From an uncultured Gammaproteobacteria bacterium (GTDB taxonomy: Bacteria; Patescibacteriota; Patescibacteriia; Magasanikbacterales; GWA2-37-8), in the NCBI GenBank assembly GCA_964604585.1, contig CAZRZQ010000003.1, forward strand, positions 1,847 to 32,797: a DNA stretch of 30,951 nt, written 5' to 3'. Under the pieces are notes generated by a model that saw only the letters and a list, made by a program, of their open reading frames with translations, was not told the origin of the DNA and did not search any database. Positions 1-30,951 of this stretch are shown here, piece after piece; the first letter of the stretch is position 1; every line of letters begins with the position of its first letter. The position numbers and the translations under genes are program-made.

Positions 1-229
1 GATCGACGAGGTCTGCAACGGCCTCGACGACGACTGCGACGAGCAGACCGACGAGAGCCTGACGCGCCTCTGCTACACCGGTCCGGAAGGGACCGAGAGC
101 GTCGGTGTCTGCCACGGCGGCATCTCGACCTGCGTCCGGGGCCAGTGGGGCCTCTGCGTAGACGAAGTGCTCCCGATCGACGAGGTCTGCAACGGCCTCG
201 ACGACGACTGCGACGAGCAGACCGACGAG
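1..229 (+). repeat. 55-bp exact direct repeat (1-55 = 175-229), period 174 bp (58 aa)
   Basis: gatcgacgaggtctgcaacggcctcgacgacgactgcgacgagcagaccgacgag occurs at 1 and 175. Confidence 0.9.
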
Positions 230-1390
230 GAGAACTCGGTCGGGTGCGACTGGTTCTACCTCGACATGGACGGGGACGGCTACGGCCAGTCCCAGGCGCC
301 GAACAAGTGCTACTGCGCTCCCACCGAGTTCTACCGCGCCCCGCAGGACGGCGACTGCAATGATAGCAGTTCGGTGATCCACCCTTACGCGCCCGAGGTC
401 TGCAACGGCCTCGACGACAACTGCGTCGCCGGTGCGGACGAGGGCTTCCAGGACCTGACCTGCGGCGTGGGCGAGTGCTCCCGCACCGTCTCGGCCTGCC
501 TGGGCGGCGTCCCGCAGACCTGCTCGCCGGGCAATCCGGTGGCGGAGGTCTGCAACAACCTCGACGACGACTGCGACGAGCAGATCGACGAGGGCTTCCA
601 GGACCTGACCTGCGGCGTGGGCGAGTGCTCCCGCACCGTCTCGGCCTGCCTGGGCGGCGTCCCGCAGACCTGCTCGCCGGGCAATCCGGTGGCGGAGGTC
701 TGCAACAACCTCGACGACGACTGCGACGAGCAGATCGACGAGGGCTTCCAGGACCTGACCTGCGGCGTGGGCGAGTGCTCCCGCACCGTCTCGGCCTGCC
801 TGGGCGGCGTCCCGCAGACCTGCTCGCCGGGCAATCCGGTGGCGGAGGTCTGCAACAACCTCGACGACGACTGCGACGAGCAGATCGACGAGGGGGACGC
901 CTGCGCTTCGTGCAACCTGGACCTCGACGAGGTCCAGTGCGGCGAGACGCTTCTGGACGTCGAGATGGGTACGCAGTCCTGGCTGAACGGGTACTCGTGT
1001 CGCCGCACCCTCGACGAGAGCGGCTTCGAGACCATGGTGAAGTACCGCACCCTCGAGGGCGGGGTGAAGGTGACGGTCACGCCGATCGGCATCCTGCCGA
1101 TCGTGAACCCGTCCAACTCCAGCCAGGCGACCGCGCTCGACATCTTCGTTCTGCGGTCGCTCTGTTCGGCTTCGGCCTGCGACATGTTCGGCTTCACCGC
1201 CGTCGCGTTCAGGCCGACCCCCGGGGTGACCTACTACCTCGCCGTGGACCAGTTCCAGGGTACTTGGGCGCAGATGTTCGACCTCCAGGTCACCTGCGAA
1301 GAGGTCGGCTGCGCGGACGGCCTGGACAACGACCTCGACGGCCTGGTGGATTCGCAGGACTGCGACTGTACGGGCACCTGCCCGCACTGA
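2..1390 (+). CDS. Cys/Asp-rich repeat surface protein with MopE-type putative metal-binding repeats; 5' truncated by the window edge
   Basis: Frame of ORF 167..1390 is open back to base 2 (IDEVCNGLDDDCDEQTDE...). Contains WFYLDMDGDGYG...GDCND...IHPYAPEVCNGLDDNC (MopE-like, PF11617-type), repeated EVCNxLDDDCDEQxDE units, a C-terminal beta-sandwich-like segment (GVTYYLAVD...FDLQVTC) and a final CADGLDNDLDGLVD Ca-binding-like repeat. Confidence 0.85.
   Translation: MDEVCNGLDDDCDEQTDESLTRLCYTGPEGTESVGVCHGGISTCVRGQWGLCVDEVLPIDEVCNGLDDDCDEQTDEENSVGCDWFYLDMDGDGYGQSQAPNKCYCAPTEFYRAPQDGDCNDSSSVIHPYAPEVCNGLDDNCVAGADEGFQDLTCGVGECSRTVSACLGGVPQTCSPGNPVAEVCNNLDDDCDEQIDEGFQDLTCGVGECSRTVSACLGGVPQTCSPGNPVAEVCNNLDDDCDEQIDEGFQDLTCGVGECSRTVSACLGGVPQTCSPGNPVAEVCNNLDDDCDEQIDEGDACASCNLDLDEVQCGETLLDVEMGTQSWLNGYSCRRTLDESGFETMVKYRTLEGGVKVTVTPIGILPIVNPSNSSQATALDIFVLRSLCSASACDMFGFTAVAFRPTPGVTYYLAVDQFQGTWAQMFDLQVTCEEVGCADGLDNDLDGLVDSQDCDCTGTCPH
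437..894 (+). repeat. Perfect in-frame tandem repeat, 150 bp x 3 plus 8 bp (50-aa unit)
   Basis: Unit gacgagggcttccaggacctgacc...gacgagcagatc starts at 437, 587 and 737; a partial unit (gacgaggg) starts at 887. No differences seen between copies. Confidence 0.95.
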
Positions 1391-1400
1391 TCGCGCGCCG

Positions 1401-1672
1401 GCCTGGCCCCGTAAGGCCGGGCTGACCTGACACTTTCGCCATGGCGGGAGTTGGGAGGGCTTCGGCCCCCGCTCTCGCCGGTTCGAATAGTTCGAAAAAT
1501 TAGAATCGCTTGACCCGCTTCGGCGGGATTGGCCCTGGCAATAGCCGGGGCATGGGGTCGGAGGCGTGAAAGATTTTTACGCCTTTCGCCCGTAGTTCTT
1601 TCGTCCCGACTAGTTCGGGACGGTGAGGAGAGGAGAATGAGACTTGTGCTTGTATAGGCAAAACTTCTCTCC
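1401..1672 (+). ncRNA. Candidate structured RNA or highly structured 3' UTR (tandem hairpins; family unknown)
   Basis: Hairpins at 1401-1422, 1443-1479 (C-UUCG-G loop), 1482-1496, 1514-1527 (C-UUCG-G loop), 1532-1551, 1562-1584, 1602-1622 and 1627-1672, with many G-U pairs. Confidence 0.45.
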
Positions 1673-1724
1673 AACCCTCACTTATATCCATGATTTACCT
1701 CGTGAATGTAAGTGAGGGTTTTTT
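1673..1724 (+). terminator. Intrinsic terminator
   Basis: aaccctcacttatat...atgtaagtgagggtt long stem ending in a T-run, followed by a T-rich tract. Confidence 0.8.
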
Positions 1725-1754
1725 GTTGCCTTTTTTCATTTTGTTTTTTAACTA

Positions 1755-1783
1755 TTGACATACTAACCTAGTATGATTATATA
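1755..1783 (+). promoter_or_regulatory. Sigma70-type promoter with a 7-bp inverted repeat in the spacer
   Basis: TTGACA (1755-1760), 17 bp, TATATA (1778-1783); catacta-acc-tagtatg at 1759-1775. Confidence 0.6.
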
Positions 1784-1847
1784 TATACTCTGGTCCTGTT
1801 GGTTGCCGGATGGTCCGGCGACAGCGGATAGACAGAGGAGGGTCAAG

Positions 1848-2396
1848 ATGCGTCTTAAGTGGTTCCTGGTGTTCACGGTCGTGTTTGGTCTGTCGATCGG
1901 CTGCGGGATCGAGGACGATGACGAGAAGGGGCGCAGGGCCGCCCCGCCCCAGCAGGTCGAGGATCGCGATGACGATGGCACGGATGACGGCCGTGAGGAC
2001 GTCGGGTGCCTCGCGTTCACCCTCGTGGTGGACCCGGGGTGCAGCGTGAGCCAGGTCTCGTTCTGGTCCGCGACAGGGAAGGACCCGATCTCGTTCTTCT
2101 CGCCGTCCAGCCAGATGAACGCGCGTGGGTTCGAGCGCAATTCGGCGCTCGAGGCCTGCTCGGTCACGCTCGACTGGCCCGGTCGGTGGGAGACCTGGGA
2201 GAACGACCGGCGGAATTTCCCGGGACCGAATGCGCCGACCGGGCACTGTGTCCTCGCCGGAGGCATTAACGTTCCCTTCGGGGAACTGAACGAGGGCGAG
2301 GCCGCCTACGGCTGTGCCCACGACGGGCGCACCAAGGACGGGGTTGTCGTCAACCCCTGTGCGGATGGTGGTTGCTACGCCGCTGCCCTCCGCTGA
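1848..2396 (+). CDS. Hypothetical Cys-rich lipoprotein-like protein (182 aa)
   Basis: GAGGAGG at 1835-1841 precedes ATG 1848 (in frame with track ORF 1773..2396). Signal-peptide-like MRLKWFLVFTVVFGLSIG-C, an acidic linker and 8 Cys; GC-rich codon usage. Confidence 0.75.
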   Translation: MRLKWFLVFTVVFGLSIGCGIEDDDEKGRRAAPPQQVEDRDDDGTDDGREDVGCLAFTLVVDPGCSVSQVSFWSATGKDPISFFSPSSQMNARGFERNSALEACSVTLDWPGRWETWENDRRNFPGPNAPTGHCVLAGGINVPFGELNEGEAAYGCAHDGRTKDGVVVNPCADGGCYAAALR

Positions 2397-4068: not shown

Positions 4069-5085
4069 ATGATCAAAGGAGAAAACGTTAGTAAAGAGAT
4101 TGTTATTTACGAGGATAAAAATGGCCAGGTGAAAGTTGAGGCCGAAGTAAGGAAAGAATCAGTGTGGTTAACACTAAACCAAATTGCCCAGTTATTTGCT
4201 ACCCATAAGTCTGGTATCTCTAGACATTTTAGCAATATATTCGAGAATGGTGAATTATCAAGAGAAGCAACTGTTGCAAAAATTGCAACAGTTCAACTAG
4301 AAGGTAAAAGACAAATAGAGCGTTTGGTTGAGTTTTATAATCTCGACGCTATTCTTTCTGTTGGTTACCGGGTTAATTCTAAAAGAGCCACCCAGTTTCG
4401 TATTTGGGCGACGGGGATTTTGCGTAAGCATATTCTAGAGGGGTATAGCCTTAATGAGAAGCGCCTGCTGGAGTTACGGGGTAGAGAATTAAATGAATTT
4501 GAACAAGCCGTATCCTTAGTGCGTAAAACAATTAGTAATCGCGAACTTAACGGTAGAGAGGCGGAAGGGATTTTAAGGGTAATAACTGATTATGCTAATA
4601 CCTGGGTTTTGTTGCAAAAATATGATGAAGATAAGATAGAATCGCCCATTAAGTTTACCAAGGTCAAAAGAGCGTTTGCTTATGAAGAAGCAGTAGGTTT
4701 AGTTAATGAATTAAAAAATAATTTGTTAGAAAAGAAAGAAGCCGGTGATTTATTTGGCCGTGAACGCGGAGAATCTTTTGGGGGGATTATCGCAACCCTT
4801 AGCCAGGCTTTTGCTGGTAAAGATTTATATCCAAGCGTGGAAGCAAAAGCAGCTCATTTGTTGTATTTTGTGATTAAGGACCATCCGTTTAGCGATGGCA
4901 ACAAACGCCTGGCTTCATTTTTGTTTGTAGTATTTTTAGCCCGCAACAAGAGTTTGCTAAAGAAGAATGGTGAAAAGAAAATCAATGACAATGCACTGGT
5001 CGCTTTAGCCCTTCTAATTGCGGAAAGTGAACCAAAGCAAAAGGAGGTTATGGTTAAGCTCATAATGAATTTTTTGGCAGGTTAG
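4069..5085 (+). CDS. RhuM-like N-terminal domain fused to a Fic/Doc domain
   Basis: VWLTLNQIAQLF and YNLDAILSVGYRVNSKRATQFRIWAT (RhuM-like); HPFSDGNKR (Fic/Doc motif). Confidence 0.9.
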   Translation: MIKGENVSKEIVIYEDKNGQVKVEAEVRKESVWLTLNQIAQLFATHKSGISRHFSNIFENGELSREATVAKIATVQLEGKRQIERLVEFYNLDAILSVGYRVNSKRATQFRIWATGILRKHILEGYSLNEKRLLELRGRELNEFEQAVSLVRKTISNRELNGREAEGILRVITDYANTWVLLQKYDEDKIESPIKFTKVKRAFAYEEAVGLVNELKNNLLEKKEAGDLFGRERGESFGGIIATLSQAFAGKDLYPSVEAKAAHLLYFVIKDHPFSDGNKRLASFLFVVFLARNKSLLKKNGEKKINDNALVALALLIAESEPKQKEVMVKLIMNFLAG

Positions 5086-9384: not shown

Positions 9385-9600
9385 ATGCGTTTTAGACAGT
9401 CATTATTTTGGGATGTTGACCCAAAAACAATTGATGAAAAAAAACACGCTCGGTACATTATTGAACGGGTTTTAGATTTTGGTAATGACAAAGAAGTACG
9501 CTGGGTTTATCATAATTTTTCACCGCGGGTTATTAAGGATGTGGTAAAAAAATCAAGAGTTATGCATAAAAAATCCAAAGCCCTATGGTCTCTAATATAG
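9385..9600 (+). CDS. DUF6922-like small protein, putative antitoxin
   Basis: LFWDVD...HARYIIERVLDFG pattern; overlaps the downstream nucleotidyltransferase by 16 nt. Confidence 0.8.
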   Translation: MRFRQSLFWDVDPKTIDEKKHARYIIERVLDFGNDKEVRWVYHNFSPRVIKDVVKKSRVMHKKSKALWSLI

Positions 9601-10262
9601 AATCTACTGAAGATTTGCATTTTGACTCACTCCCAAAGGCGACGCAAGAAGCTTTTTTGGTTTGTCAAAAGATGGACTTGTTTGCGAAAAATAACTGGTA
9701 TTTAGCTGGTGGCACGGCTTTGGCTTTACAAGTGGGGCATAGGCAATCAGTCGATCTGGATTTTTTTACGCCGAATAAAAAATTTAAAGAGATAGAAGTG
9801 GAACGGGAGTTGTTAAATACCGGGCTGTGGTCCACTACTTATAGAGAGAATGGTACAATTTATGGAGTATTTAATGGAGCTAAAATGAGTCTGATCGCTT
9901 ATCCTTTTTTCTTGCCGCAAAAGAATAAATTAAAAATTGGAAAGATAAAAATTTTGTTGCCCGTGGACATTGCTTCGATGAAGATAGTGGCTGTAAGCCA
10001 ACGTGGCCGCAAGCGTGATTTTTATGATTTGTATTGGTATTGTAAAAATATTGCTCCGCTAGGTGAAGTGATATTAAAAGCAGTTAACCAGTATCCTGGT
10101 CAGGAAAATAACGTCGCTCATATTCTTAAAAGTCTGGCTTATTTTACTGATGCAGAAAACGACCCTGATCCAAAAATTTACTTTAAGGCCAGTTGGTTGG
10201 AAGTGAAGAAATTTTTTCGTCAGGAGGTAAAAAGTTTGACTCCTAAAATTTTACAGTTTTGA
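9585..10262 (+). CDS. AbiEii/AbiGii-family nucleotidyltransferase (type IV TA toxin-like)
   Basis: YLAGGTALALQVGHRQSVDLDFF; KIVAVSQRGRKRDFYDLY. Confidence 0.9.
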   Translation: MVSNIESTEDLHFDSLPKATQEAFLVCQKMDLFAKNNWYLAGGTALALQVGHRQSVDLDFFTPNKKFKEIEVERELLNTGLWSTTYRENGTIYGVFNGAKMSLIAYPFFLPQKNKLKIGKIKILLPVDIASMKIVAVSQRGRKRDFYDLYWYCKNIAPLGEVILKAVNQYPGQENNVAHILKSLAYFTDAENDPDPKIYFKASWLEVKKFFRQEVKSLTPKILQF

Positions 10263-10489: not shown

Positions 10490-11380
10490 TTATTTCCCGG
10501 TAATCAAGCAAACGATTGGTCCGGTAATTTTTTTTTCATTTGTTAAATACTGTTGTAGGCCAACTAAACTTAAAATGCTGTTCGGAGACAAAACAATGTC
10601 TTCTTTTTCTTTTAGGAGAGTAAGTGTTTCTTGAATTTCTTCGTTAGTAGCTATCCAGGTGTTTCCTCGGCTTTCTTGTGCAGCATTGGCCACTGTAGTT
10701 TTGCGGTGGCCCACCTTATCTACAATGGCATCGGCTAAAGACAGTTTATTCGTGTCTGATGGTAGTTCTCCATTATGGTCTTCAACAAATGGATGGCAAG
10801 CGTCAGTTTGGACGATATGTATTTCTGGGTTTAAACCAAGTTTTTCGAATCCAAGATGCAATCCTAAAGCCGTCGTGCCACTCGAAGTGGGGATAAAAAT
10901 TGCCGCTACTGTGGGGAGCTCTTCCATTATTTCTTTAGCTAATTCCTCATAGCCAACAAGGGCCAGATCATCGGTGGATTGGCGCAAGTTTTTTACTTCT
11001 TCGTCTTTGTCCAACTGAAAAGCTACTTGTTTAGGATTCTTGACTTGTCGTAAAACAACGTTTTCATCCGTTAGGTTACGTAAAGCATTTATTTTTTCTT
11101 CATTAATATTTTCGCCAACTAGAATAAGAAGGGTGAGTTTGTTGTTATTATTTTTATTATAATCCGAGATATATAATCCCGCGGCCAGAGCGGCGTTGCC
11201 AGAAGAAGAAATGGTGAATTTGGTGTAACCTTGTTTTAAATAGTGTTCAATCATGAATGGAATCGATCTCCCCTTGTGGGACTTCAAAGGGTGAAGATCT
11301 TCGCGCTTAAAAAACAGCGACTCTTTTAGATTAAGAACTGTCTCGAGTTTTTCCATTCTTTGGAGAGGGGTTAAAGGCAT
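10490..11380 (-). CDS. Fold-type II PLP-dependent enzyme (threonine synthase / cysteine synthase-like; substrate unknown)
   Basis: FKREDLHPLKSHKGRS (PLP lysine region), SSSGNAALA, PTSSGTTALG, CLITG. Confidence 0.85.
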   Translation of the reverse strand: MPLTPLQRMEKLETVLNLKESLFFKREDLHPLKSHKGRSIPFMIEHYLKQGYTKFTISSSGNAALAAGLYISDYNKNNNNKLTLLILVGENINEEKINALRNLTDENVVLRQVKNPKQVAFQLDKDEEVKNLRQSTDDLALVGYEELAKEIMEELPTVAAIFIPTSSGTTALGLHLGFEKLGLNPEIHIVQTDACHPFVEDHNGELPSDTNKLSLADAIVDKVGHRKTTVANAAQESRGNTWIATNEEIQETLTLLKEKEDIVLSPNSILSLVGLQQYLTNEKKITGPIVCLITGK

Positions 11381-11618: not shown

Positions 11619-13025
11619 TTATTTTACCAATTCTTCAATCATCCCTCGGAAGCCGTGGCTACCGAGGAACACAACCACATCGTTTGGTTGTGTTTTGTTT
11701 TTGATATAAGTAATCAATTCGGCGTCTAGAGGTAAATATAAAACATTAGGGTGGGTTTTACTAATAATCTTGGTTAGTTCATCACCCTCAAGGCTCGTGT
11801 CATTTTCTTTGTTTTTTAATTTAGTCAGGCGGGGGATTATGACTTCAGTGGCATCGCTAAAAGCTTGGTCGTAAAAAGGAGCAGATTTTTTTTCGCGGTT
11901 GCCGGTATTAGGTTCAAAAATCGCGTAGATATTTCCAGTATAGATTTTTTTCAAGGCGTTTAAAGCCGACTTGGCTTTTGCTGGTGAATGAGCAATGTCA
12001 TCAAAGACATCGGCGCCGTTTAGAGTACCGCGTTTTTCCAGTCGGCGTTTTAAACCAGTAAATTTAGTTAAAGCAGTGATTATTTTTTTACTCGGTACGC
12101 CTATTTCACTCGCGAGCGCAAAAGCCCCACAAACATTCTCAGCCATGTATTCGCCGATAACTGGGACGTTTAGGTGATATAATTCGGCTTGATGGACGAT
12201 GTCCAAACTTAACCCGGTTTTGTTTTGCTGGATATTTAAGTAACAATAATCAGTTTGGGCGGAACGTCCATAGGAAACGAGTCGAGCAGCGAGGGGTGTC
12301 TCTTTGACCAACTTGTTTACATTGGTATTGTCGAGGCAAGCGACGATTAAACCAGATTTTGGTACCAGATTAAGTAATTCACTAAAAGCTCTGAAATAAT
12401 CGGTTTCAGTTTTATAAATATCAGCATGATCCCACTCTACCGCCGTTAGAAGTAAGTGGGTGGGGGAGTAGGATAAAAATTTTGGGCGGTTATCCCAACG
12501 AGCAGTTTTGTATTCGTCGCCTTCTAAAATACTCCACTCGGAATTATTTGGATTATCCGCGCTTAAGTCTAGATTTTTACTAATTCCCCCGAACATATAC
12601 GTGGGGTTATAACCAGATTCTTTTAATATCCAGGCAAGGAGAGTGGTGGAAGAGGTTTTGCCATAAGTACCAGCGCAAACAATCGAATTTTCTTTTACCA
12701 AATATCTGGCAATTAATTCTGGGTAGGAGACATATGGTAAGTTATTATCTTGGACATATTTCCATTCCGGGTTTTCTGACCCGGCCACATTTCCAACAAC
12801 CACCATGTATTCGTCGGTGGGGGTAGAATTATTTGTAAATTTTTCTAAAACTTTTTCCGGATGCCACCCTGGATAAAAAACAACGCCGTGTTTTTTTAGA
12901 TTGGTAGACACAGGTGGATAAAAACCCACGTCCGAACCAGTGACAACCCACCCTTTTTCTTTAAAAAGAATAGCGAGTGCGCTCATACCAACGCCACAGA
13001 TGCCGATGAAGTGGAGGTGTTTCAT
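11619..13025 (-). CDS. mpl: Mpl-like UDP-MurNAc:peptide ligase (MurC/Mpl family)
   Basis: GSDVGFYPPVS, GTYGKT, EGDEYKTARWDNRPKFLSYSP, EWDHADIY, DDIAHSP, FEPN and GSHGFRG fit Mpl better than MurC (from my recall of E. coli Mpl: GSDANVYPPMS, EADEY...DKRSKF, EFDHADIF). Confidence 0.8.
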   Translation of the reverse strand: MKHLHFIGICGVGMSALAILFKEKGWVVTGSDVGFYPPVSTNLKKHGVVFYPGWHPEKVLEKFTNNSTPTDEYMVVVGNVAGSENPEWKYVQDNNLPYVSYPELIARYLVKENSIVCAGTYGKTSSTTLLAWILKESGYNPTYMFGGISKNLDLSADNPNNSEWSILEGDEYKTARWDNRPKFLSYSPTHLLLTAVEWDHADIYKTETDYFRAFSELLNLVPKSGLIVACLDNTNVNKLVKETPLAARLVSYGRSAQTDYCYLNIQQNKTGLSLDIVHQAELYHLNVPVIGEYMAENVCGAFALASEIGVPSKKIITALTKFTGLKRRLEKRGTLNGADVFDDIAHSPAKAKSALNALKKIYTGNIYAIFEPNTGNREKKSAPFYDQAFSDATEVIIPRLTKLKNKENDTSLEGDELTKIISKTHPNVLYLPLDAELITYIKNKTQPNDVVVFLGSHGFRGMIEELVK

Positions 13026-13663
13026 ACAGCGTTTTTTAATTCATCTAAATCTAAGTTCCATTTTTTTTCGTCCCACCATTCTAATCCCGTAAACTGAATT
13101 TTATACAAAGCCGTTTCGTCTTTAACACTACCTAGGTAGACATATTTTTTATTCTTTTCCTTGGCTGAAGTTATTGCCTCGGTCATCATACCAATGCCAA
13201 GATTTGGTAAGTCAGTGTGTAAATTGTAAAAAGGATAAGAATAATGGAATAATTCATTGGTTTCTAAACAAATAGCATAACCAACCGGAATGTTGTTTAA
13301 GGTGTAGACAAGGAGCTGGTTAAAATTGGATTTGTCGGTTGTTAGTAATTCCTTTATTTTATTGGCGCTGAAAGTGCCGTCGCCAAATTTAGTGGTATAA
13401 AAGTCCTTGCCCAGTTTTCCGATTTCCCAGGTATATTTATCGTAGGGCAGGGGATGAGTAGTTAATTTAATTTCTTCATTTTTTCTTAAAATTCTTCGGT
13501 TTTCGCTCGTTAGTTCAAATTTTTCCAAGTTAATTCGTAAACTCCTGGTCTGGTAGAGGTAGCCTTTTTTGGTCCGACCAAAAAGCCAGCCTTGGTTGTA
13601 CAAGGCATTAAGATTACTATCGGAAAAGTCAGTCGTGGTTTGTTCTGCCCATTTTAAATACAT
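13022..13663 (-). CDS. ATE1/Bpt-like aminoacyl-tRNA transferase (GNAT fold)
   Basis: SLRINLEKF...NRRILRKN, YSYPFY...LGIGMM...AKEKNKKYVYLG...YK.F follow the ATE_N/ATE_C pattern; 4-nt ATGA overlap with mpl. Confidence 0.7.
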   Translation of the reverse strand: MYLKWAEQTTTDFSDSNLNALYNQGWLFGRTKKGYLYQTRSLRINLEKFELTSENRRILRKNEEIKLTTHPLPYDKYTWEIGKLGKDFYTTKFGDGTFSANKIKELLTTDKSNFNQLLVYTLNNIPVGYAICLETNELFHYSYPFYNLHTDLPNLGIGMMTEAITSAKEKNKKYVYLGSVKDETALYKIQFTGLEWWDEKKWNLDLDELKNAV

Positions 13664-13669
13664 AACAAG

Positions 13670-14800
13670 TTAGTAAAGAGCAACCCAAAGTCCTAGTAGT
13701 ACAGCGGCGGTATGCACAATCCAGAAACGCATGACGGTTTTTTCTTCACTCCAGCCGCGCAGTTCAAAGTGGTGGTGGAGCGGGGCCATTTTAAAAATGC
13801 GGCGACCGAGGATGTAGCGACCAAAGATTTGGATGATAACGCTCACCAGTTCAACATAAAAAATAAAAGCGAGAAGAGGTAATAGTACGAGTTGGTTCAT
13901 GACGATAATATTGATGGCGAGGAGTGCCCCGAGGCCGAGTGACCCAACATCGCTCATTTGAAAACGGGCCGGTTTGATATTAAAGTAAGTATAGGTAATT
14001 AAGGCACCGACAGTCGTGGCGTTTAAAAGGGTAATTTCATTTAATCCTTCCAGCCAGCTTAAAAGAGTTAAAGCCGAAAAAGTAATGATTAATGATCCGC
14101 CAGCTAAACCATCCATGCCGTCGGCGACATTAACGGCATTGGCGGTAAACATAACAAAGAAAATGATTAGTGGGATGATCCACCAACCGATGTTGATAAA
14201 CCCATCGAAAGGAATATGGATTTCACGCCAATTTTCACCGAGTTTAAAAAAGATCCACCAGGCCGTAATCGCGCCAGCGAGAAATTCAAGGAGTAGTTTC
14301 TCATGGACGTGTACCCCTTTACCAGGATGCGACCCCAACCAAAGAGAAATTCGTTTAAAAGCGGCCCACGGGAAAGTAACGATAAGCCAAATGCGATGCC
14401 AGATACTTTTGTGGACGCGGATTAAAGTAAGAATCTGACTAATTTTTCGGTTACGTCTCGGCGTACCAAAAATATTTAAGAGGTCGTCGACTCCGCCCAG
14501 GAATGACGACAGTAACATGACGCCGATTGGTACCCAGGTAAATTTACGTTCCCAGTTAAAAAGTATGGTAATTACTGCGACAGTTACGACCACCAAGAGT
14601 CCGCCCATAATCGGTGTGCCAGTTTTAGTTTGACGGCCATTTATACCGAGCGAGACGTCAAATTCATTGCGGCGGGTAATTTTGTATTTGTATAAAATCT
14701 TCGTAAGAAGCGGTGCCCAGAGAAAGGCAATCACACACGAAACTAAGCCAAAACTAATGGCTTTACGTAGTAATTCGAGGGTTTCTAGATTCATGGGCAT
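13670..14800 (-). CDS. mraY: Phospho-N-acetylmuramoyl-pentapeptide transferase with a large loop insertion
   Basis: KTGTPIMGG, GVDD, NAVNVADGMDG, MSDVGSLGLG, FKMAPLHHHFELRGWSE. Confidence 0.92.
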   Translation of the reverse strand: MPMNLETLELLRKAISFGLVSCVIAFLWAPLLTKILYKYKITRRNEFDVSLGINGRQTKTGTPIMGGLLVVVTVAVITILFNWERKFTWVPIGVMLLSSFLGGVDDLLNIFGTPRRNRKISQILTLIRVHKSIWHRIWLIVTFPWAAFKRISLWLGSHPGKGVHVHEKLLLEFLAGAITAWWIFFKLGENWREIHIPFDGFINIGWWIIPLIIFFVMFTANAVNVADGMDGLAGGSLIITFSALTLLSWLEGLNEITLLNATTVGALITYTYFNIKPARFQMSDVGSLGLGALLAINIIVMNQLVLLPLLAFIFYVELVSVIIQIFGRYILGRRIFKMAPLHHHFELRGWSEEKTVMRFWIVHTAAVLLGLWVALY

Positions 14801-14811
14801 AAGCGTTAGGG

Positions 14812-14840
14812 ATTATACCCCAAAAAGGTGTTTCGGGCAA
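14812..14840 (-). promoter_or_regulatory. Promoter of the mraY-ATE-mpl operon
   Basis: Minus strand: TTGCCC (14840-14835), 17 bp, TATAAT (14817-14812). Confidence 0.65.
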
Positions 14841-14854
14841 GATTAAGCCGAAAA

Positions 14855-14883
14855 TTGTGACTAAGTCCGGTTTGTGTTATAAT
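14855..14883 (+). promoter_or_regulatory. Promoter of corA
   Basis: TTGTGA (14855-14860), 17 bp, TATAAT (14878-14883) with an extended TG. Confidence 0.65.
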
Positions 14884-14902
14884 AAGGGGGTTAATTAAAT
14901 TT

Positions 14903-15931
14903 ATGGCCACTAAAATTAAAAATATTTCGCGCCGAGAGACAACCGGTAAAAATAAAATATATGTCTTTGATTTTGATCCAGTTAATTTGTTGGAAAAAGA
15001 AGTAAAATCAATTGACGAATGTGTTGAGTTAAAAAATACCCCCTCTATTACTTGGATTAACATTGACCGAGTACCGCCAGTGGACTTTTTGGATAAGCTA
15101 ACTTTGGGGTTTGATCTCCATCCCGTTGTAATTGATGACATTTTTAATGTTAACCAAAGACCAAAGATTGAAATTCTCGATGACTATATTTATTTGACCT
15201 TTAAAATGCTTTCGGCTGAAGTGGGTAAGAAGAATATTGTTGCGGAGCAGGTCAGTATGATTATTGGTGAGAAGTTTGTAATTACTTTTCAACAAGGTAT
15301 TGAGGGTGACACTTTTAGAGCGGTGCGGGAACGGATTAGGAATCCGAAAAGCCGGATTCGTACCCAGGGTACGGATTACCTCGGGTATGCTTTGTTGGAT
15401 TCGGTGGTCGATGGCTATTTTGGAATTTTGGAAAACTTCAGTGACCGATTAGAGAAGTTGGAGGAGCAGTTAATCAACGACCCCGGTTCGCACACCTTGA
15501 AAGAAATTCATACTTTGAAACGCGAGATTTTACATTTGCGTAAGGCAGTGTGGCCGTTGCGGGAAGCGATTACCATCATGGAGCGCGGTGAATCAAGGTT
15601 GATTAAAAAAACAACCCGTATTTATCTACGAGATGTTTATGACCACATAATCCAAATTATAGATACGGTTGAAACTTACCGGGAAATGCTTTCGGGGATG
15701 GTGGACATTTATCTTTCCAGTATTAATAACCGGATGAACTCAGTCATGAAGGTTTTGACTGTTATCACAACAATTTTCATGCCGCTAACTTTTATCGCCG
15801 GTATTTATGGCATGAATTTTAAACACATGCCGGAACTAGAACACGTTTGGGGCTATCCGTTTGTTTTGGGTGTAATGGCAACCGTTGCTTTAATAATGTT
15901 ACTGTATTTTCAGCGGAAGAAGTGGTTGTAA
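14903..15931 (+). CDS. corA: Magnesium/cobalt transporter CorA
   Basis: QRPKIE, YLRDVYDH, MKVLTVITTIFMPLTFIAGIYGMNF. Confidence 0.97.
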   Translation: MATKIKNISRRETTGKNKIYVFDFDPVNLLEKEVKSIDECVELKNTPSITWINIDRVPPVDFLDKLTLGFDLHPVVIDDIFNVNQRPKIEILDDYIYLTFKMLSAEVGKKNIVAEQVSMIIGEKFVITFQQGIEGDTFRAVRERIRNPKSRIRTQGTDYLGYALLDSVVDGYFGILENFSDRLEKLEEQLINDPGSHTLKEIHTLKREILHLRKAVWPLREAITIMERGESRLIKKTTRIYLRDVYDHIIQIIDTVETYREMLSGMVDIYLSSINNRMNSVMKVLTVITTIFMPLTFIAGIYGMNFKHMPELEHVWGYPFVLGVMATVALIMLLYFQRKKWL

Positions 15932-15934
15932 GTT

Positions 15935-16717
15935 TTACTTAAAGCAGTTCAATCTTTTTAAAATTAAGTCCTCGGCATTCTTGGCGTGGGTAAAAGTTTC
16001 GTTGTTATTACCGGTTTCATTTTTTTCTTCCCAAACTGCTTCCAAAAGCGGTTTTTTAGTGTCTGTGATTGTAATTCGACCGAGGCGTACACCGTGATCA
16101 TATTGTCCATCTTTTGACCACTGAAAAGAGTGAGCATAATTGATAGTGGTCGGGGTGTCCGCTTCTCTCTCTATTCTAGTAACGATTAAGACATGATTAT
16201 AGTCGTGTTTGGGTCCGGTTTTAAGCATTATGATCAGATCGCCGGCTCTGACATCTTCGTTTTTAATTTCATGGCTATTCTTTTCGTGGACGAGAGTACC
16301 AACACCGGTATTTTCAATCGGCCGGAGCCAAGCCAAAAGTTTTCTAAGCGGGCTTTTAATAAAGGGTCGCTTTAGATGTTTTTTTAAGGGTCCTAATTTT
16401 TTGCCCAAACTCTCCGCTTCTAAGAGATGATAGGCGAAACCAGAACAATCAGTACCTAAGTGGTGATTAGCTAAAAATTTTTTTAAATCACCAGAATCGA
16501 GTGTGCCTAGATCAATTTTTTCTCGAAGGGCGATTAGTTGTGCTTCTTCGGAAATTTCTTCGGCACCACCTTTTCCAACCAAAACTCGAAGAGCACCGCG
16601 TAGTCGCATGTGGCGGTTATTGAAATACGGGCAATTAACGGTGGCGTTAAAATTTGGTAGGTGTAAATAGTCAGCTAATACTTTTTTTGCCTCAGCGGTT
16701 AAATCACTCTGGATCAT
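15935..16717 (-). CDS. NlpC/P60-like (papain-fold) cysteine peptidase/amidase, no signal peptide
   Basis: GTDCSGFAYHLL (candidate catalytic Cys), then RAGDLIIM...NHVLIV (candidate His); 4-nt overlap with the upstream ATP-grasp gene. Confidence 0.65.
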   Translation of the reverse strand: MIQSDLTAEAKKVLADYLHLPNFNATVNCPYFNNRHMRLRGALRVLVGKGGAEEISEEAQLIALREKIDLGTLDSGDLKKFLANHHLGTDCSGFAYHLLEAESLGKKLGPLKKHLKRPFIKSPLRKLLAWLRPIENTGVGTLVHEKNSHEIKNEDVRAGDLIIMLKTGPKHDYNHVLIVTRIEREADTPTTINYAHSFQWSKDGQYDHGVRLGRITITDTKKPLLEAVWEEKNETGNNNETFTHAKNAEDLILKRLNCFK

Positions 16718-18539: not shown

Positions 18540-19478
18540 ATGCAAGAAATATATAAAACACTAAAAACTTTCGGTAAAGTCAAAGTTAATGTCCCTTTGG
18601 CTCGTTTTACGACTTTTAAAATTGGCGGACCGGCTAAGTTTTACGTCGAGGTGGCCGGTAAGGATGAGACGGCAGGATTGTTAAATTTCTTGTCTAGCGA
18701 AGGGATGACTTTTTATATTTTAGGCAACGGGTCAAATGTGGTTTTCTCGGATGAAGGTTATGATGGTGTTGTGGTGCGCTTCAAAAATGAAGAAATAAAC
18801 TTGATGGGGAATACGATTATTGCGGGAGCCGGAGCGGCTCTCGCCAAAGTTGTAAACCTGGCCTCGCAAAATAGCCTAAGCGGGCTTGAATGGGCGGCTG
18901 GAGTACCGGGTACGGTTGGTGGCGCGGTGCGTGGTAACGCGGGGGCGATGGGAAAAGAAACTTCAAATTGTGTTTCGGAAGTAGAAGTTTGGCAAGATGG
19001 GGAGGTAAAAAATTGGACAGCGAAAGAGTGTGGATTCGGTTACCGGGATAGTGATTTTAAGAATAACCAAGCCGTAATTTTGGAGGTTAAGTACGTTTTG
19101 AATCCTGGGGATAAGGCAACAATTTTGGCAGAAATGCAAAAATATTTAAAACAACGTTCAGGGCGCTATCCCGCTTATCCCTCAGCGGGGAGTTTTTTCA
19201 AGAATGTTAAGGTGGCGGATTGGCCAGGAGATAAAAGTGAGCTGCCACCATTATATATTGAGCGCAAGATGATCCCGGTCGGTTGGCTGATCGAGGGTGT
19301 TGATTTAAAAGGATACGCGATTGGTGGCGCCAAGTTTTCTGAGGAGCATGGGAATTTTATTGTGAATTTTAATAACGCTACTCAAGCGGACATTGTGGCT
19401 TTAGTTGAAGAGGCTAAGTCTAGAGTGTATAATAAATATAAGGTGGGGATTGAACCGGAAGTGGAGATTGTTCAATAA
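18540..19478 (+). CDS. murB: UDP-N-acetylenolpyruvoylglucosamine reductase
   Basis: TTFKIGGPA, LGNGSN, GVPGTVGGAVRGNAGA, SAGSFFKN, HGNFIVN. Confidence 0.96.
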   Translation: MQEIYKTLKTFGKVKVNVPLARFTTFKIGGPAKFYVEVAGKDETAGLLNFLSSEGMTFYILGNGSNVVFSDEGYDGVVVRFKNEEINLMGNTIIAGAGAALAKVVNLASQNSLSGLEWAAGVPGTVGGAVRGNAGAMGKETSNCVSEVEVWQDGEVKNWTAKECGFGYRDSDFKNNQAVILEVKYVLNPGDKATILAEMQKYLKQRSGRYPAYPSAGSFFKNVKVADWPGDKSELPPLYIERKMIPVGWLIEGVDLKGYAIGGAKFSEEHGNFIVNFNNATQADIVALVEEAKSRVYNKYKVGIEPEVEIVQ

Positions 19479-27973: not shown

Positions 27974-28101
27974 AATAAAAAGACCTTCCGCCAGTTTGGG
28001 GCTTATAAACCCCGGCCGAAAGCCTTTCTTGTTTTTAAGATACCATATTGTCATAAATGGTCAAGTGGTTATTGGGTTAACGGAAAGAATAGAGAGTGTT
28101 T

Positions 28102-29826
28102 ATGCTAAAAGAACGAAATAACGAAAGAGAAATAACGATCTTGTCTTTGGTGTTTTTGGCCATCGCCTTGTTTATTATTGTCCGTCTTTTAATTTTACAA
28201 ATTCTCCAGCACGATTATTATTCTTTGTTCGCCCTAAACACTCATGAGATTTACCAGAAGCTTTATCCGGCGCGTGGTAGTATATATTATCGTGATGCTC
28301 GGGGCGACAAAGAATATCCCGCGGCGGTTAATCGGGGATATTATCTGGTTTACGCTGTACCGCAAGATATTCCACAAGATAAAATTACCGAAGTAGGGGA
28401 TAAATTAAGCGAGGTCTTTGGTTTTGTTGAAGAAGACAAAACCAAACTTTTAGAGAAGCTTTCTAAAAGCGACGATCCGTATGAGCCAGTGCAAAAAAAA
28501 GTAGATGAGGCAACCTGGGAAAAAATAGCGGCCCTAAATTTACCGGGGATATACAAAGCATCACAAAAGTTTCGTTACTACCCGGAAGCTAATTTAGCGT
28601 CAAATATTTTAGGTTTTACCGGTGAAAGCGAAAACGGTAGTTTGGTTGGGAGCTACGGCTTGGAAGGGTATTGGAACAAAGAATTATCTGGTAAATCCGG
28701 ATTTTTAGCCGGTGAGCAGGGAGCCCTTGGTTCGTGGATTGCGAGCGCCGGTCGTACCCTGGTCAAAGCTGAAGAGGGGCGAGACTTAGTTTTGACGCTT
28801 GACCGCTCTGTTCAGAACAAAGCCTGTGCAGTTTTAAAAAAAGGCTTTGAAGAATACAAAGCTAAAAGTGCTTCTTTAATTTTAATGAATCCGAAAACTG
28901 GCGCGGTATACGCGATGTGTAGTTATCCGGATTTTGATCCGAATAACTATTCAAAAGTAAAAAATTTGGAGGAGTTTAATAACACAAATATTTTTACGGC
29001 CTATGAGCCGGGTTCGGTATTTAAACCAATAACCATGGCGGCGGCTCTGGATCAGAACCTGGTTAATCCAAATACCACTTTTCAAGATCCATGTGAACGT
29101 AAAATTGACGGGTTTACTATTAGGAATGCTTTAAAAAAATGCTACGGTCGGATCACAATGACTCAAACTTTGGAAAATTCGGTGAACACGGCGATGATTT
29201 GGGTGCAAGAACAATTGGGTCGGGAGCGCTTTCAAGATTATGTAAAAAAGTTTGGTTTTGGTGAAAAAACCGGCATTGAATTAAACACAGAAGTAGAGGG
29301 CAACATATCTTCTTTAGAAAAAAAAGGTAAAGTGTATGGTGCGGTCGGTTCGTTTGGTCAGGGGCTAACAGTAACGCCGATGCAGATTGCCACGGCTTAC
29401 GCCGCTATTGCGAATGGCGGCAAGATGCCGCGGCCATATGTGGTGGCTGAACAGCGATATGCCGATGGGCGGAAGGAAAAAACTGAACCACGTATTGTCG
29501 AGAATGTTATTTCTGAGCGCGCCGCAAAGCTTTTAACCGGGATGATGGTTTCAGTAGTAGAAAATACTTACACTACTCGAGTGAAGCTCGACCATTATTA
29601 TGTGGCTGGTAAAACCGGTACTGCCCAGATTCCTGGTAAAGGTGGTTACACCGAAGAAACTAACCATACTTTTGGCGGATTCTTTCCGGCTGATGATCCG
29701 GGGTTTGTAATGGTGGTAAAGTACGAAGCGCCACAACGTGAATGGGCGGAATCGACGGCCGCACCCACTTTTAAAGAAGTGGCGGAGTTTGTATTAAAGT
29801 ATTTTGCGGTGCCGGAAGAACGGTAG
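28102..29826 (+). CDS. ftsI: Class B penicillin-binding protein (FtsI/PBP2 family)
   Basis: N-terminal TM, RGSIY, EPGSVFK (SxxK), SVN (SxN), GKTGTAQ (KTG). Position before murF favours ftsI. The track starts at GTG 28096. Confidence 0.85.
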   Translation: MLKERNNEREITILSLVFLAIALFIIVRLLILQILQHDYYSLFALNTHEIYQKLYPARGSIYYRDARGDKEYPAAVNRGYYLVYAVPQDIPQDKITEVGDKLSEVFGFVEEDKTKLLEKLSKSDDPYEPVQKKVDEATWEKIAALNLPGIYKASQKFRYYPEANLASNILGFTGESENGSLVGSYGLEGYWNKELSGKSGFLAGEQGALGSWIASAGRTLVKAEEGRDLVLTLDRSVQNKACAVLKKGFEEYKAKSASLILMNPKTGAVYAMCSYPDFDPNNYSKVKNLEEFNNTNIFTAYEPGSVFKPITMAAALDQNLVNPNTTFQDPCERKIDGFTIRNALKKCYGRITMTQTLENSVNTAMIWVQEQLGRERFQDYVKKFGFGEKTGIELNTEVEGNISSLEKKGKVYGAVGSFGQGLTVTPMQIATAYAAIANGGKMPRPYVVAEQRYADGRKEKTEPRIVENVISERAAKLLTGMMVSVVENTYTTRVKLDHYYVAGKTGTAQIPGKGGYTEETNHTFGGFFPADDPGFVMVVKYEAPQREWAESTAAPTFKEVAEFVLKYFAVPEER

Positions 29827-29882: not shown

Positions 29883-30951
29883 ATGAAAACTATTTTAATT
29901 AAGATTCTTCGCTTTTTATCTAAAAGGATAATTCGGAAATACCATCCGGATGTGGTTGGGATTACTGGGTCAATCGGTAAAACATCAGCCAAAGAAGCGA
30001 CTACGATGGTGCTCGGCGGTCGTTTCCGAGTCCGGAAAAGCCCAAAGAATTATAACAATGAAATTGGGGTACCACTAGCCATTATTGGTTTTGACAAAAC
30101 TCCCGGTAAATCTTTACTGGGTTGGCTTAAGGTTTTGGGGCAGGGAGTGGGGTTATTGTTAAAACGGGATAAAATTTATCCGGAGATTTTAGTTTTGGAA
30201 ATGGGGGCAGACAAACCAGGAGACATAAAATATTTGGTAGACATTGCGCCGTGTCAGGTGGGGGTTTTAACTTACGTTGCTCACGCACACACAGAATTTT
30301 TTAAGACAATTAAAAAAATTGCTGAAGAAAAAAGAACTATTTTAACTCACCTTAGTAATGAAGGTGTAGCGGTAGTGAATTACGACAACCCGGAATCTTT
30401 ACAGGCGGCCAGGGGTATAAAAGCCGAATTAGTTACTTTTGGTTTTCAGCTGGGCGCGGATTTACAAGCGACGGATGTTAATATAATCAAGGGAGAAAAT
30501 GGTTGGCCGGCTGGTTTGAATTTTAAAGTTTTACACAAGGGAAGTATTGTGCCCGTTTTTTTGCCAGGAATTGTTGCTGAGCATTTAATACCATCAGTTT
30601 TAGCGGCTATTGCCGTTGGTCTTTCAATGGGGATAAATTTGGTTGAAGCGGCGGAATCACTGCGTGCCCTAGAGCCACTGCCTGGCCATATGCGATTAGT
30701 GTCTGGGATAAAGCATACATTACTAATTGACGACACATATAACTCCAGCCCCGAACCAACTAAATCGGCTTTAGCCACATTAGCTAAAGTAGATTTGCAG
30801 CCAGGAGCGGAAAGATACGCTGTACTGGCAGATATGCTTGAACTCGGGCCAGAAACAACGAACGCCCATCGCGAAGTAGGTTTCCGGGTGGCAGAATTGG
30901 GGATAAATTATCTCATTACGGTTGGTGAAGCATCCAAGGAGACTGCACGAG
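29883..30951 (+). CDS. murF: UDP-MurNAc-tripeptide:D-Ala-D-Ala ligase; 3' truncated (absent from the ORF track)
   Basis: My translation from ATG 29883: MKTILIKILRFLSKRIIRKYHPDVVGITGSIGKTSAKE...NYNNEIGVPL...LVLEMGADKPGDI...IDDTYNSSP...VLADMLELG; open to the window end. Confidence 0.93.
   Translation, partial: MKTILIKILRFLSKRIIRKYHPDVVGITGSIGKTSAKEATTMVLGGRFRVRKSPKNYNNEIGVPLAIIGFDKTPGKSLLGWLKVLGQGVGLLLKRDKIYPEILVLEMGADKPGDIKYLVDIAPCQVGVLTYVAHAHTEFFKTIKKIAEEKRTILTHLSNEGVAVVNYDNPESLQAARGIKAELVTFGFQLGADLQATDVNIIKGENGWPAGLNFKVLHKGSIVPVFLPGIVAEHLIPSVLAAIAVGLSMGINLVEAAESLRALEPLPGHMRLVSGIKHTLLIDDTYNSSPEPTKSALATLAKVDLQPGAERYAVLADMLELGPETTNAHREVGFRVAELGINYLITVGEASKETAR

Follow-up and report, generated by a model that had tools for sequence, protein, structure and literature searches.

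An ATE/Bpt-fold transferase coupled to an Mpl-type ligase in Patescibacteria and its probable role in peptidoglycan stem-peptide synthesis

The pathway of MurC, MurD, MurE and MurF is treated as universal in peptidoglycan-making bacteria and is a textbook drug target. Here, we describe a gene from a stretch of 30,951 nucleotides (contig CAZRZQ010000003.1, in the following called the window) of the Magasanikbacteria genome G000, which belongs to an ultra-small uncultured bacterium. Its product P0001 is, by predicted fold and motifs, a member of the ATE/Bpt superfamily of aminoacyl-tRNA transferases. Very probably this ATE-like enzyme works in the synthesis of the peptidoglycan stem peptide and not in N-degron tagging. 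In several separate lineages its gene travels with those for MraY, an NlpC/P60-type amidase, a pyridoxal phosphate (PLP) enzyme, an ATP-grasp ligase and a LysW-like mini-protein, and it is coupled to a Mur ligase that sequence comparison assigns to the Mpl type. These observations point to entire lineages that build a wall in the absence of MurC and MurD and possess a conserved gene set around an ATE1/Bpt-fold enzyme instead. The original prediction for this locus was an ATE-family enzyme repurposed either for cell-wall peptide synthesis or for the modification of lipid intermediates. We favour the first possibility over the second, and also over a Fem/MurM-like branching role, because a separate FemAB gene exists and the tightest partner of the ATE-like gene is the ligase and not MraY.

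The ATE-like core motifs noticed at first reading are indeed present, and similarity to the ATE/GNAT group is found by profile as well as by fold; the resemblance is strong in structure and weak in sequence. With 20.5 bits P0001 remains below the Pfam cut-off for ATE_C (25 bits), which is passed by some of its relatives (P0146 with 27.6, P0171 with 32.9 and P0156 with 40.6 bits). The Pfam scan gave no match of P0001 to ATE_N (PF04376) or to FemAB (PF02388). Among the NCBIfam arginyltransferase models the best score is 43.9 bits (E 1.9e-11) against a cut-off of 170, those of the other models being also at least 170. Searches of PDB sequences with the single sequence and with a 35-sequence profile found no ATE1 match; a broader 52-sequence profile reaches yeast and human ATE1 marginally (E 0.3-0.9). 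The AlphaFold2 model of P0001, built from a 35-sequence alignment, has a mean predicted local distance difference test (pLDDT) value of 97, and human ATE1 ranks first among its Foldseek matches (E 5e-10, template modelling (TM) score 0.78). Structural alignment with VIA-align superposes 209 of the 213 residues on human ATE1 (8tzv) with Z 17.6 and a root-mean-square deviation of 2.9 Å. Yeast ATE1 is also among these fold matches; Kluyveromyces lactis Ate1 (klAte1) and the MprF/aminoacyl-phosphatidylglycerol (aa-PG) synthases follow with Z 14-15, FemX with Z 12-13 and the tRNA-dependent peptide synthases Sba18 and Sbb17 with Z 12. The best 30 models from AFDB Swiss-Prot are all Bpt Asp/Glu leucyltransferases, aligned over the full length with TM 0.71-0.80 at 16-22% identity. 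Thus, the two-lobed ATE fold with its N-terminal lobe and GNAT lobe is kept along the whole of P0001, which is a shortened member of the superfamily.

Invariant or nearly invariant positions of the family are R40-S-x-R43, S53-E-N-R-R57, H140-Y141, Y146, Y176-L-G178, Y187-K188, E195 and W202, and the motifs align with -VYFIWDP-, -YYLGY- and -NYK- of yeast ATE1. The N-terminus of P0001 (MYLKW) agrees with that of its homologues, so that the start codon is correct. As stated in the original prediction there is a single cysteine, C132, in a column that is not conserved (Cys in 22 of 97 family representatives). In klAte1 the zinc site is formed by C23, C26, C95 and C96, and R80, Y25 and Y87 line the pocket for the acidic acceptor (PMC9351520). 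The four metal-binding cysteines are absent throughout the P0001 family, whose N-termini have Tyr or Arg-Ser at the places of the CxxC motifs. The arginine pocket of klAte1 consists of S255, S273, E277 and Y289, with A, A, Q and L as counterparts in Bpt (PMC9351520). In the 52-sequence profile the C-terminal motifs align to yeast ATE1 residues 234-307 at E 0.34, and by this alignment the four pocket positions map to Y141, M159, A163 and V/I175 of P0001, which are conserved in 35, 33, 28 and 26 of 35 sequences, respectively. Tentatively, the donor pocket appears fuller and uncharged and would fit a small donor side chain such as that of Ala or Gly; the residue mapping to ATE1 is itself tentative since the underlying profile match is only marginal.

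The coupling of the gene to its neighbours, recognised already from the DNA, is confirmed: it follows mraY after a gap of 6 bp (13664-13669), and its stop codon overlaps the start of the next ligase gene as ATGA (reverse complement of tcat at 13022-13025). A word-indexed search returned 1231 clusters of relatives (clustered at 90% identity); the best of them reach about 60% identity and, where they have a name, come from Magasanikbacteria or Patescibacteria; the exhaustive search of 1.84 billion representatives yielded 296 clusters at E ≤ 1e-3. The family is abundant in Patescibacteria, and relatives are encoded in 544 species-level genomes. The expected proximity of homologues to mur genes is borne out, as mraY and/or the ligase gene adjoins the ATE-like gene in 78 of 80 Magasanikbacteria loci with enough flanking sequence. 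Nearly all of the 80 species-level loci of this group follow the order MurB / ATP-grasp, P60-like, MraY, ATE-like, ligase, PALP. The families f46 and f70, at about 30% identity, show the order ATE-like, ligase, P60-like, MraY, PALP, ATP-grasp, so that MraY is not adjacent to the ATE-like gene there. In f55 the ligase gene follows the ATE-like gene, with MraY and MurB nearby. Two independent fusions join the ATE-like domain to the ligase, one in G308 (688 amino acids) and one in the distant protein P0268 (645 amino acids, 29% identity), the latter being encoded inside a dcw (division and cell wall) cluster between a Mur ligase gene and murA. Fusions of the ligase with the P60-like protein occur in G088 and G152.

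Besides these, two distant relatives have a different surrounding. P0270 (809 amino acids) has PPDK_N and PEP-utilizer (swivelling phosphohistidine) domains and not a Mur ligase as its fusion partners. In a GC-rich organism (L128:1789-4122 and L129) there is an overlap between the gene of P0226 and the end of an alanine racemase gene, and next comes the gene of a 78-residue Zn_ribbon_8 protein; this locus adds a further link to the cell wall and a further small partner of the zinc-ribbon type.

The coupled ligase P0003 was originally named mpl. This name holds in the maximum-likelihood tree, where the ATE-associated ligases of f1, f2, f46, f55 and f70 and that of P0268 form a clade with E. coli Mpl (support 100/99) that leaves out E. 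coli MurC as well as MurC from three non-carrier genomes of the candidate phyla radiation (CPR), and Psychrobacter Mpl (3hn7) is the best PDB sequence match of P0003. It is less well served by profile models: the murC model scores higher (266.1 bits, cut-off 335.1) than the mpl model (238.7 bits, cut-off 388.7), both being below their cut-offs. From its sequence relationships we regard the ATE-associated ligase as Mpl-type. In G000 it is the sole ligase of the MurC/Mpl family and therefore must serve de novo synthesis.

Phyletic counts are based on 401 evenly drawn Patescibacteria genomes (the unpublished genome G154 is counted among the non-carriers only, and none of the conclusions hinges on it). 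The ATE-like family was found in 19 of them, which belong to at least five separate lineages, namely the order of the window (nine of ten sampled members and G000) and the families f46, f55, f70 and f144. All 19 carriers show only cross-hits to the murD model (E 1e-15 to 1e-26), whereas its cut-off is passed by 299 of the 382 non-carriers; G334, a non-carrier from the same order as the window, has MurD at 2.7e-102. By our own arithmetic, which counts five independent lineages and 22% of non-carriers without MurD, such a pattern would arise by chance with a probability of about 5e-4. In the three carriers examined for MurC (G000, G018 and G039) no ligase exceeds the murC cut-off, and in G018 and G039 the murC model finds only the ATE-adjacent ligase (271 and 104 bits, respectively). 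The non-carriers G334, G046 and G253 possess canonical MurC (398-487 bits). The Mur-type ligases of G000 (925 kb, 93% complete) are only the Mpl-type enzyme, MurE and MurF in addition to a split FolC; neither MurD nor ClpS was found in this genome, which has one FemAB gene and Ddl. An Asp/Glu racemase (PF01177) is found in one of 19 carriers and 166 of 382 other genomes. This pattern adds little as only 43% of the non-carriers have PF01177, and for the same reason glutamate racemase was dropped as a third complementary gene.

Two further wall genes of G000 deserve mention. Its MurE, encoded on contig C4 (L007:2495-3787, 430 amino acids), matches the murE profile only from position 73 and is thus without most of the N-terminal UDP-binding domain; this short form may be general to the phylum, as other CPR Mur ligases have similar lengths. 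The FemAB-family gene on contig C8 (L010:2308-3285, 325 amino acids) scores above the Pfam cut-off and lies apart from the P0001 locus, a hint that a tRNA-dependent branch is added to the stem peptide as well.

How the ATE-like enzyme could take part in stem-peptide synthesis can be outlined by analogy with its characterised relatives. P0001 would take a small L-amino acid, probably L-Ala, from aminoacyl-tRNA and attach it at the free alpha-amine of an acceptor of the glutamate type. Candidates for this acceptor are free Glu, a gamma-Glu peptide and Glu that is bound to the LysW-like mini-protein through its Lys tail. N-terminal Glu and Asp are the acceptor class of ATE1 and Bpt. The adjacent and sometimes fused Mpl-type ligase would then join the N-terminal L-Ala-Glu unit to UDP-N-acetylmuramic acid (UDP-MurNAc), with the residue added by P0001 becoming position 1 of the stem, and the route would replace MurC and MurD. 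Since MurE is kept, the product is suggested to be a UDP-MurNAc-dipeptide and the substrate of the ligase shorter than usual. A precedent exists in related folds that form peptide bonds on small-molecule amines, e.g., the aminoacyl-tRNA-dependent enzymes Sba18 and Sbb17. The fusions of the ligase with the ATE-like and with the P60-like protein and the order ATE-like, ligase, P60-like in f46 and f70 fit consecutive steps. For this specific mechanism, that is transfer from tRNA onto a Glu-type acceptor and delivery of the product to the ligase, we consider the chances to be about even.

The remaining members of the module show the following properties. The LysW-like open reading frame (ORF) reaches 33.5 bits against PF21344 (cut-off 27), so its zinc-ribbon character is well supported. 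It was located in 69 related loci, always with the end -DEGK. In f46 and f70 it lies between the genes for MraY and PALP and ends in -IEK, -VQK, -VEK or -IQK. The terminal Lys is thus invariant, -DEGK, -EK and -QK being its only endings. In LysW the acidic tail ends in Glu (EDWGE-type), which is the attachment site; such a Glu-terminated tail is missing in the ORF of the window, which ends in Lys. The PALP protein has weak matches to threonine synthase and dehydratase, and its gene is co-located in f1, f2, f46 and f70. For the ATP-grasp protein, which is kept in the module, PDB sequences gave no relative and family models gave only weak matches, among them one to pseudomurein Ddl-like proteins. 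Some relatives have it joined to a NUDIX domain (L003:2399-4045; L004:581-2194). A 660-residue ORF (L041:2036-4018) with a C-terminal P60-like domain is, judging from gene order, probably a fusion with the ATP-grasp protein.

The P60-like protein shows invariant C91 (in GIDCSGF), H175 and H196. Its AlphaFold2 model has pLDDT 95.8, and Foldseek gives only weak matches to CHAP, Gsp-amidase and IdeS proteins (best E 0.014). The P60-type assignment is therefore based on the DCSG...H...H motifs. A strong match (E < 1e-30) occurs in 18 of the 19 carriers and in a single non-carrier, G053 (E 1e-41); among the other non-carriers G274 follows at 2.8e-22 and three more match only weakly. In G053 (C8:48823-49526, split) and G274 (C17:10674-11240) the P60-like gene is found in genomes without MurD and without a detectable ATE-like gene; these genes may represent a variant or decaying form of the module.

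Speculatively, the Lys-tailed carrier, ATP-grasp enzyme, PLP enzyme and amidase could act in a scheme of tethering, inversion, extension and release. In its full form Glu would be loaded by the ATP-grasp enzyme on the Lys tail of the LysW-like carrier and inverted by the PLP enzyme, L-Ala would be added from Ala-tRNA by the ATE-fold enzyme, the Mpl-type ligase would join the unit to UDP-MurNAc and the cytoplasmic NlpC/P60 amidase would release it. Such a route would replace MurC, MurD and MurI in several CPR lineages, but as a whole we regard it as a tentative proposal that is somewhat unlikely to hold.

Other explanations of the locus have to be weighed against a function in stem-peptide synthesis. 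According to a first one, which takes up an analogy given as background in the original prediction, P0001 is Fem/MurM-like and uses aminoacyl-tRNA to place a branch residue on the side-chain amine at position 3 (Lys, Orn or diaminopimelate (DAP)) of UDP-MurNAc-pentapeptide or of lipid I/II. Branch addition is, to our knowledge, the sole established tRNA-dependent step in peptidoglycan synthesis; furthermore, the fold is common to FemX and the MprF/aa-PG synthases, and in Magasanikbacteria the ATE-like gene stands directly after mraY. The constant partner across lineages, however, is the Mpl-type ligase, which is twice fused to the ATE-like domain, MraY being not adjacent in f46 and f70. G000 already has its separate FemAB gene above the Pfam cut-off, and a branching enzyme leaves the loss of MurD in all 19 carriers and of MurC in G000, G018 and G039 unexplained. 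We consider this role improbable.

A second explanation retains the ATE fold and dispenses with aminoacyl-tRNA. P0001 could then be a GNAT-type acyl or peptidyl transferase that draws on another donor, such as acyl-CoA, an acyl-phosphate made by the ATP-grasp enzyme or a peptide bound to the LysW-like carrier; alternatively, it could assist the Mpl-type ligase without being catalytic itself. The P0001-family profiles also touch ordinary GNAT acetyltransferases, the Zn/Fe-S cysteine site of ATE1 is lost, and the ATP-grasp enzyme and carrier protein of the module could supply activated acyl groups. Yet the two-lobed ATE architecture is preserved completely, with its N-terminal lobe, over 209 of 213 residues, the closest structures (ATE1, Bpt, MprF, FemX and Sba18) are all aminoacyl-tRNA-dependent, and the basic motifs S-E-N-R-R and R-S-x-R, which are typical of the family, are invariant. 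The likelihood of a donor other than tRNA seems low to us.

Equally low we rate a salvage pathway, in which imported fragments of host walls would be trimmed by the P60-type amidase, the ATE-like enzyme would restore the missing N-terminal L-Ala on gamma-D-Glu peptides and the Mpl-type ligase would reload them on UDP-MurNAc, the D-Glu being scavenged and not made. CPR bacteria are generally thought to be host-dependent. The Mpl-type character of the ligase fits this possibility, as does the fusion of the cytoplasmic NlpC/P60 enzyme to the ligase in two genomes, and the carriers lack MurD (19 of 19) and MurC (in the three examined) and mostly the Asp/Glu racemase. Mpl itself is the recycling enzyme of Gram-negative bacteria (compare PMC3060825), and this recycling role also speaks for salvage. 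On the other hand, salvage leaves the Lys-tailed carrier, PLP enzyme and ATP-grasp enzyme, which co-occur with the other genes, without a function, the retention of MurE argues against the reloading of tripeptides, and a dedicated peptide importer was not seen in the module.

Finally, an ordinary Bpt-like enzyme that tags N-terminal Asp or Glu for ClpS/ClpAP and has its neighbourhood by coincidence was rejected as extremely improbable: although the closest annotated relatives are Bpt Asp/Glu leucyltransferases, ClpS (PF02617) was found in none of six carriers searched (G000 and two closed, single-contig genomes included), the score is far below the Bpt equivalog cut-off (43.9 against 170 bits), the conserved cysteine site is lost, and linkage and fusion to Mur genes are kept across lineages at about 30% identity.

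Several points weigh against a function in stem-peptide synthesis or against details of the mechanism proposed for it. The function of every family member is deduced from comparative genomics, and P0001 itself stays below the Pfam and NCBIfam family cut-offs. A GNAT-type fold can accept acyl donors other than aminoacyl-tRNA, and the mapping of the donor pocket depends on the marginal profile match at E 0.34. The Mpl clade contains a single Mpl reference and has long branches. Carriers keep MurE, which fits a dipeptide product and not the tripeptide on which Mpl usually acts. The mechanism does not account for the source of D-Glu, and we know of no precedent for a glutamate racemase among fold-type II PLP enzymes. 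Five non-carriers without MurD (G267, G399, G053, G224 and G257) have no ATE-like match even at E ≤ 1; hence the ATE-like enzyme is not the sole way around MurD. In G385 the ATE-like gene stands alone, with no other module genes in the 15-kb stretch examined, and in locus L130 the ligase next to it is MurE-type. This ligase (L130:676-2821) groups with E. coli MurE (100/100) and not with Mpl, and ftsZ and ftsA are found nearby.

The genes of the window that belong to this module or to wall synthesis in general are compiled in Table 1.

Table 1. Wall-related genes of the window, with positions counted from its first nucleotide
Feature	Position	Strand	Basis and remarks
Fold-type II PLP enzyme (PALP)	10490..11380	-	Pfam PALP 1.7e-36
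LysW-like zinc-ribbon mini-protein, 54 amino acids	11454..11618	+	PF21344; ends -VDEGK
Mpl-type Mur ligase P0003, 468 amino acids	11619..13025	-	Profiles, tree, PDB sequence match
ATE/Bpt-superfamily aminoacyl-tRNA-transferase-like protein P0001, 213 amino acids	13022..13663	-	Profile, motif and fold evidence
MraY (phospho-MurNAc-pentapeptide transferase)	13670..14800	-	TIGR00445 179.7 bits and Pfam Glycos_transf_4
Cytoplasmic NlpC/P60-type (papain-fold) amidase-like protein	15935..16717	-	Motif C91/H175/H196
ATP-grasp ligase, 417 amino acids	16714..17967	-	Pfam ATP-grasp_3
MurB	18540..19478	+	Context; divergent from the ATP-grasp gene, position conserved in relatives
Class B penicillin-binding protein	28096-29826		Context; upstream of MurF
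MurF	29883..30950	+	Context; cut by the window end

The ATP-grasp gene overlaps the P60-like gene by 4 nt, and the LysW-like ORF is convergent with the ligase gene. A scan for promoters and terminators between 11300 and 15200 found such sites no more frequently than in shuffled sequence; a -35/-10-like site just upstream of mraY (14840-14812) is a consensus match only. Between the P60-like gene and mraY the module is interrupted on the other strand by a gene for a CorA Mg2+ transporter (14903-15931, +), which has this position in only two of 80 related loci. An ORF of 111 amino acids (14806-15141, -) that overlaps the CorA gene has no family match and is probably spurious. In relatives a block for glycan synthesis (Wzy_C, radical SAM, GT4, GHL15) directly adjoins the PLP-enzyme gene; in the window a RhuM/Fic-domain gene (4069-5085, +) and an AbiEii-type toxin gene (9585-10262, +) are found inside this block. 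The first 2000 nucleotides of the window (1-2000) differ in GC content (0.64 compared with about 0.40 elsewhere) and show many overlapping long ORFs in all frames; this part could be of foreign origin or result from a chimeric assembly at the end of the contig.

If charged tRNA indeed builds the stem peptide, substrates of translation would be linked with the core of wall synthesis beyond the Fem-type branches, and the ATE/Bpt fold would gain a function outside protein degradation. This could possibly explain the "incomplete" wall pathways encountered in surveys of CPR genomes, and the compact set of seven proteins would be open to in vitro work. Should even the carrier-based route be true, it would represent the first step in core stem-peptide synthesis that depends on tRNA and a carrier protein, and it would give the ATE/Bpt fold its first role outside proteolysis. 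The family also bears on the divergence of ATE/Bpt, Fem and MprF transferases. A literature search that covered few subscription journals gave no description of the family, of the module, of a MurC/MurD gap in CPR bacteria or of LysW-like proteins in wall synthesis.

Compared with known systems, P0001 is nearest in structure to bacterial Bpt (Asp/Glu leucyl-tRNA-protein transferase) and eukaryotic ATE1 (PF04376 and PF04377; PRK01305), with which it has in common the two-lobed full-length fold and the motifs around R..R, S-x-x-R-R, YLG and YK. By analogy it probably also shares their chemistry, i.e., the transfer of an aminoacyl group from tRNA to an alpha-amine beside an acidic group. It differs by its low identity (16-22%), by scores below the curated cut-offs and by the absence of an ATE_N match and of the four Zn/Fe-S cysteines. 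The predicted donor pocket reads Y/M/A/V in the marginal alignment (E 0.34) in contrast with S/S/E/Y for an arginine donor and A/A/Q/L for a leucine donor. Moreover, the family is located in mur operons, with fusions to the Mpl-type ligase, in organisms of which the six checked have no ClpS. FemX/FemABX/MurM (PF02388) resemble P0001 in the related dupli-GNAT fold and in tRNA-dependent addition to peptidoglycan precursors, as proposed here; the step proposed for P0001 would, however, build positions 1 and 2 of the stem upstream of the Mpl-type ligase and not a side-chain branch.

With LysW/ArgW carrier systems and their LysX-type ATP-grasp enzymes the module shares a small zinc-ribbon protein, an ATP-grasp ligase and possibly a product-releasing hydrolase. 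In contrast with these systems an invariant terminal Lys replaces the C-terminal Glu, LysZ/Y/J/K genes are missing and the context is peptidoglycan synthesis. Mpl, the UDP-MurNAc:L-Ala-gamma-D-Glu-meso-DAP ligase of recycling, likewise puts a preformed peptide on UDP-MurNAc; P0003 differs from it in its score below the NCBIfam mpl cut-off, in being the sole MurC/Mpl-family ligase and in the retention of MurE. In Xanthomonas D-Glu is incorporated at position 2 of the stem without glutamate racemase by MurD2, a MurD-type ligase acting on UDP-MurNAc-L-Ala, and MurL, an ATP-dependent epimerase (PMC8788868). The 19 carriers, in contrast, have no MurD-type ligase and rely on other genes. Mpl recycling and the MurD2/MurL route are the closest parallels in the literature, and the latter demonstrates that rewiring is possible in this section of the pathway.

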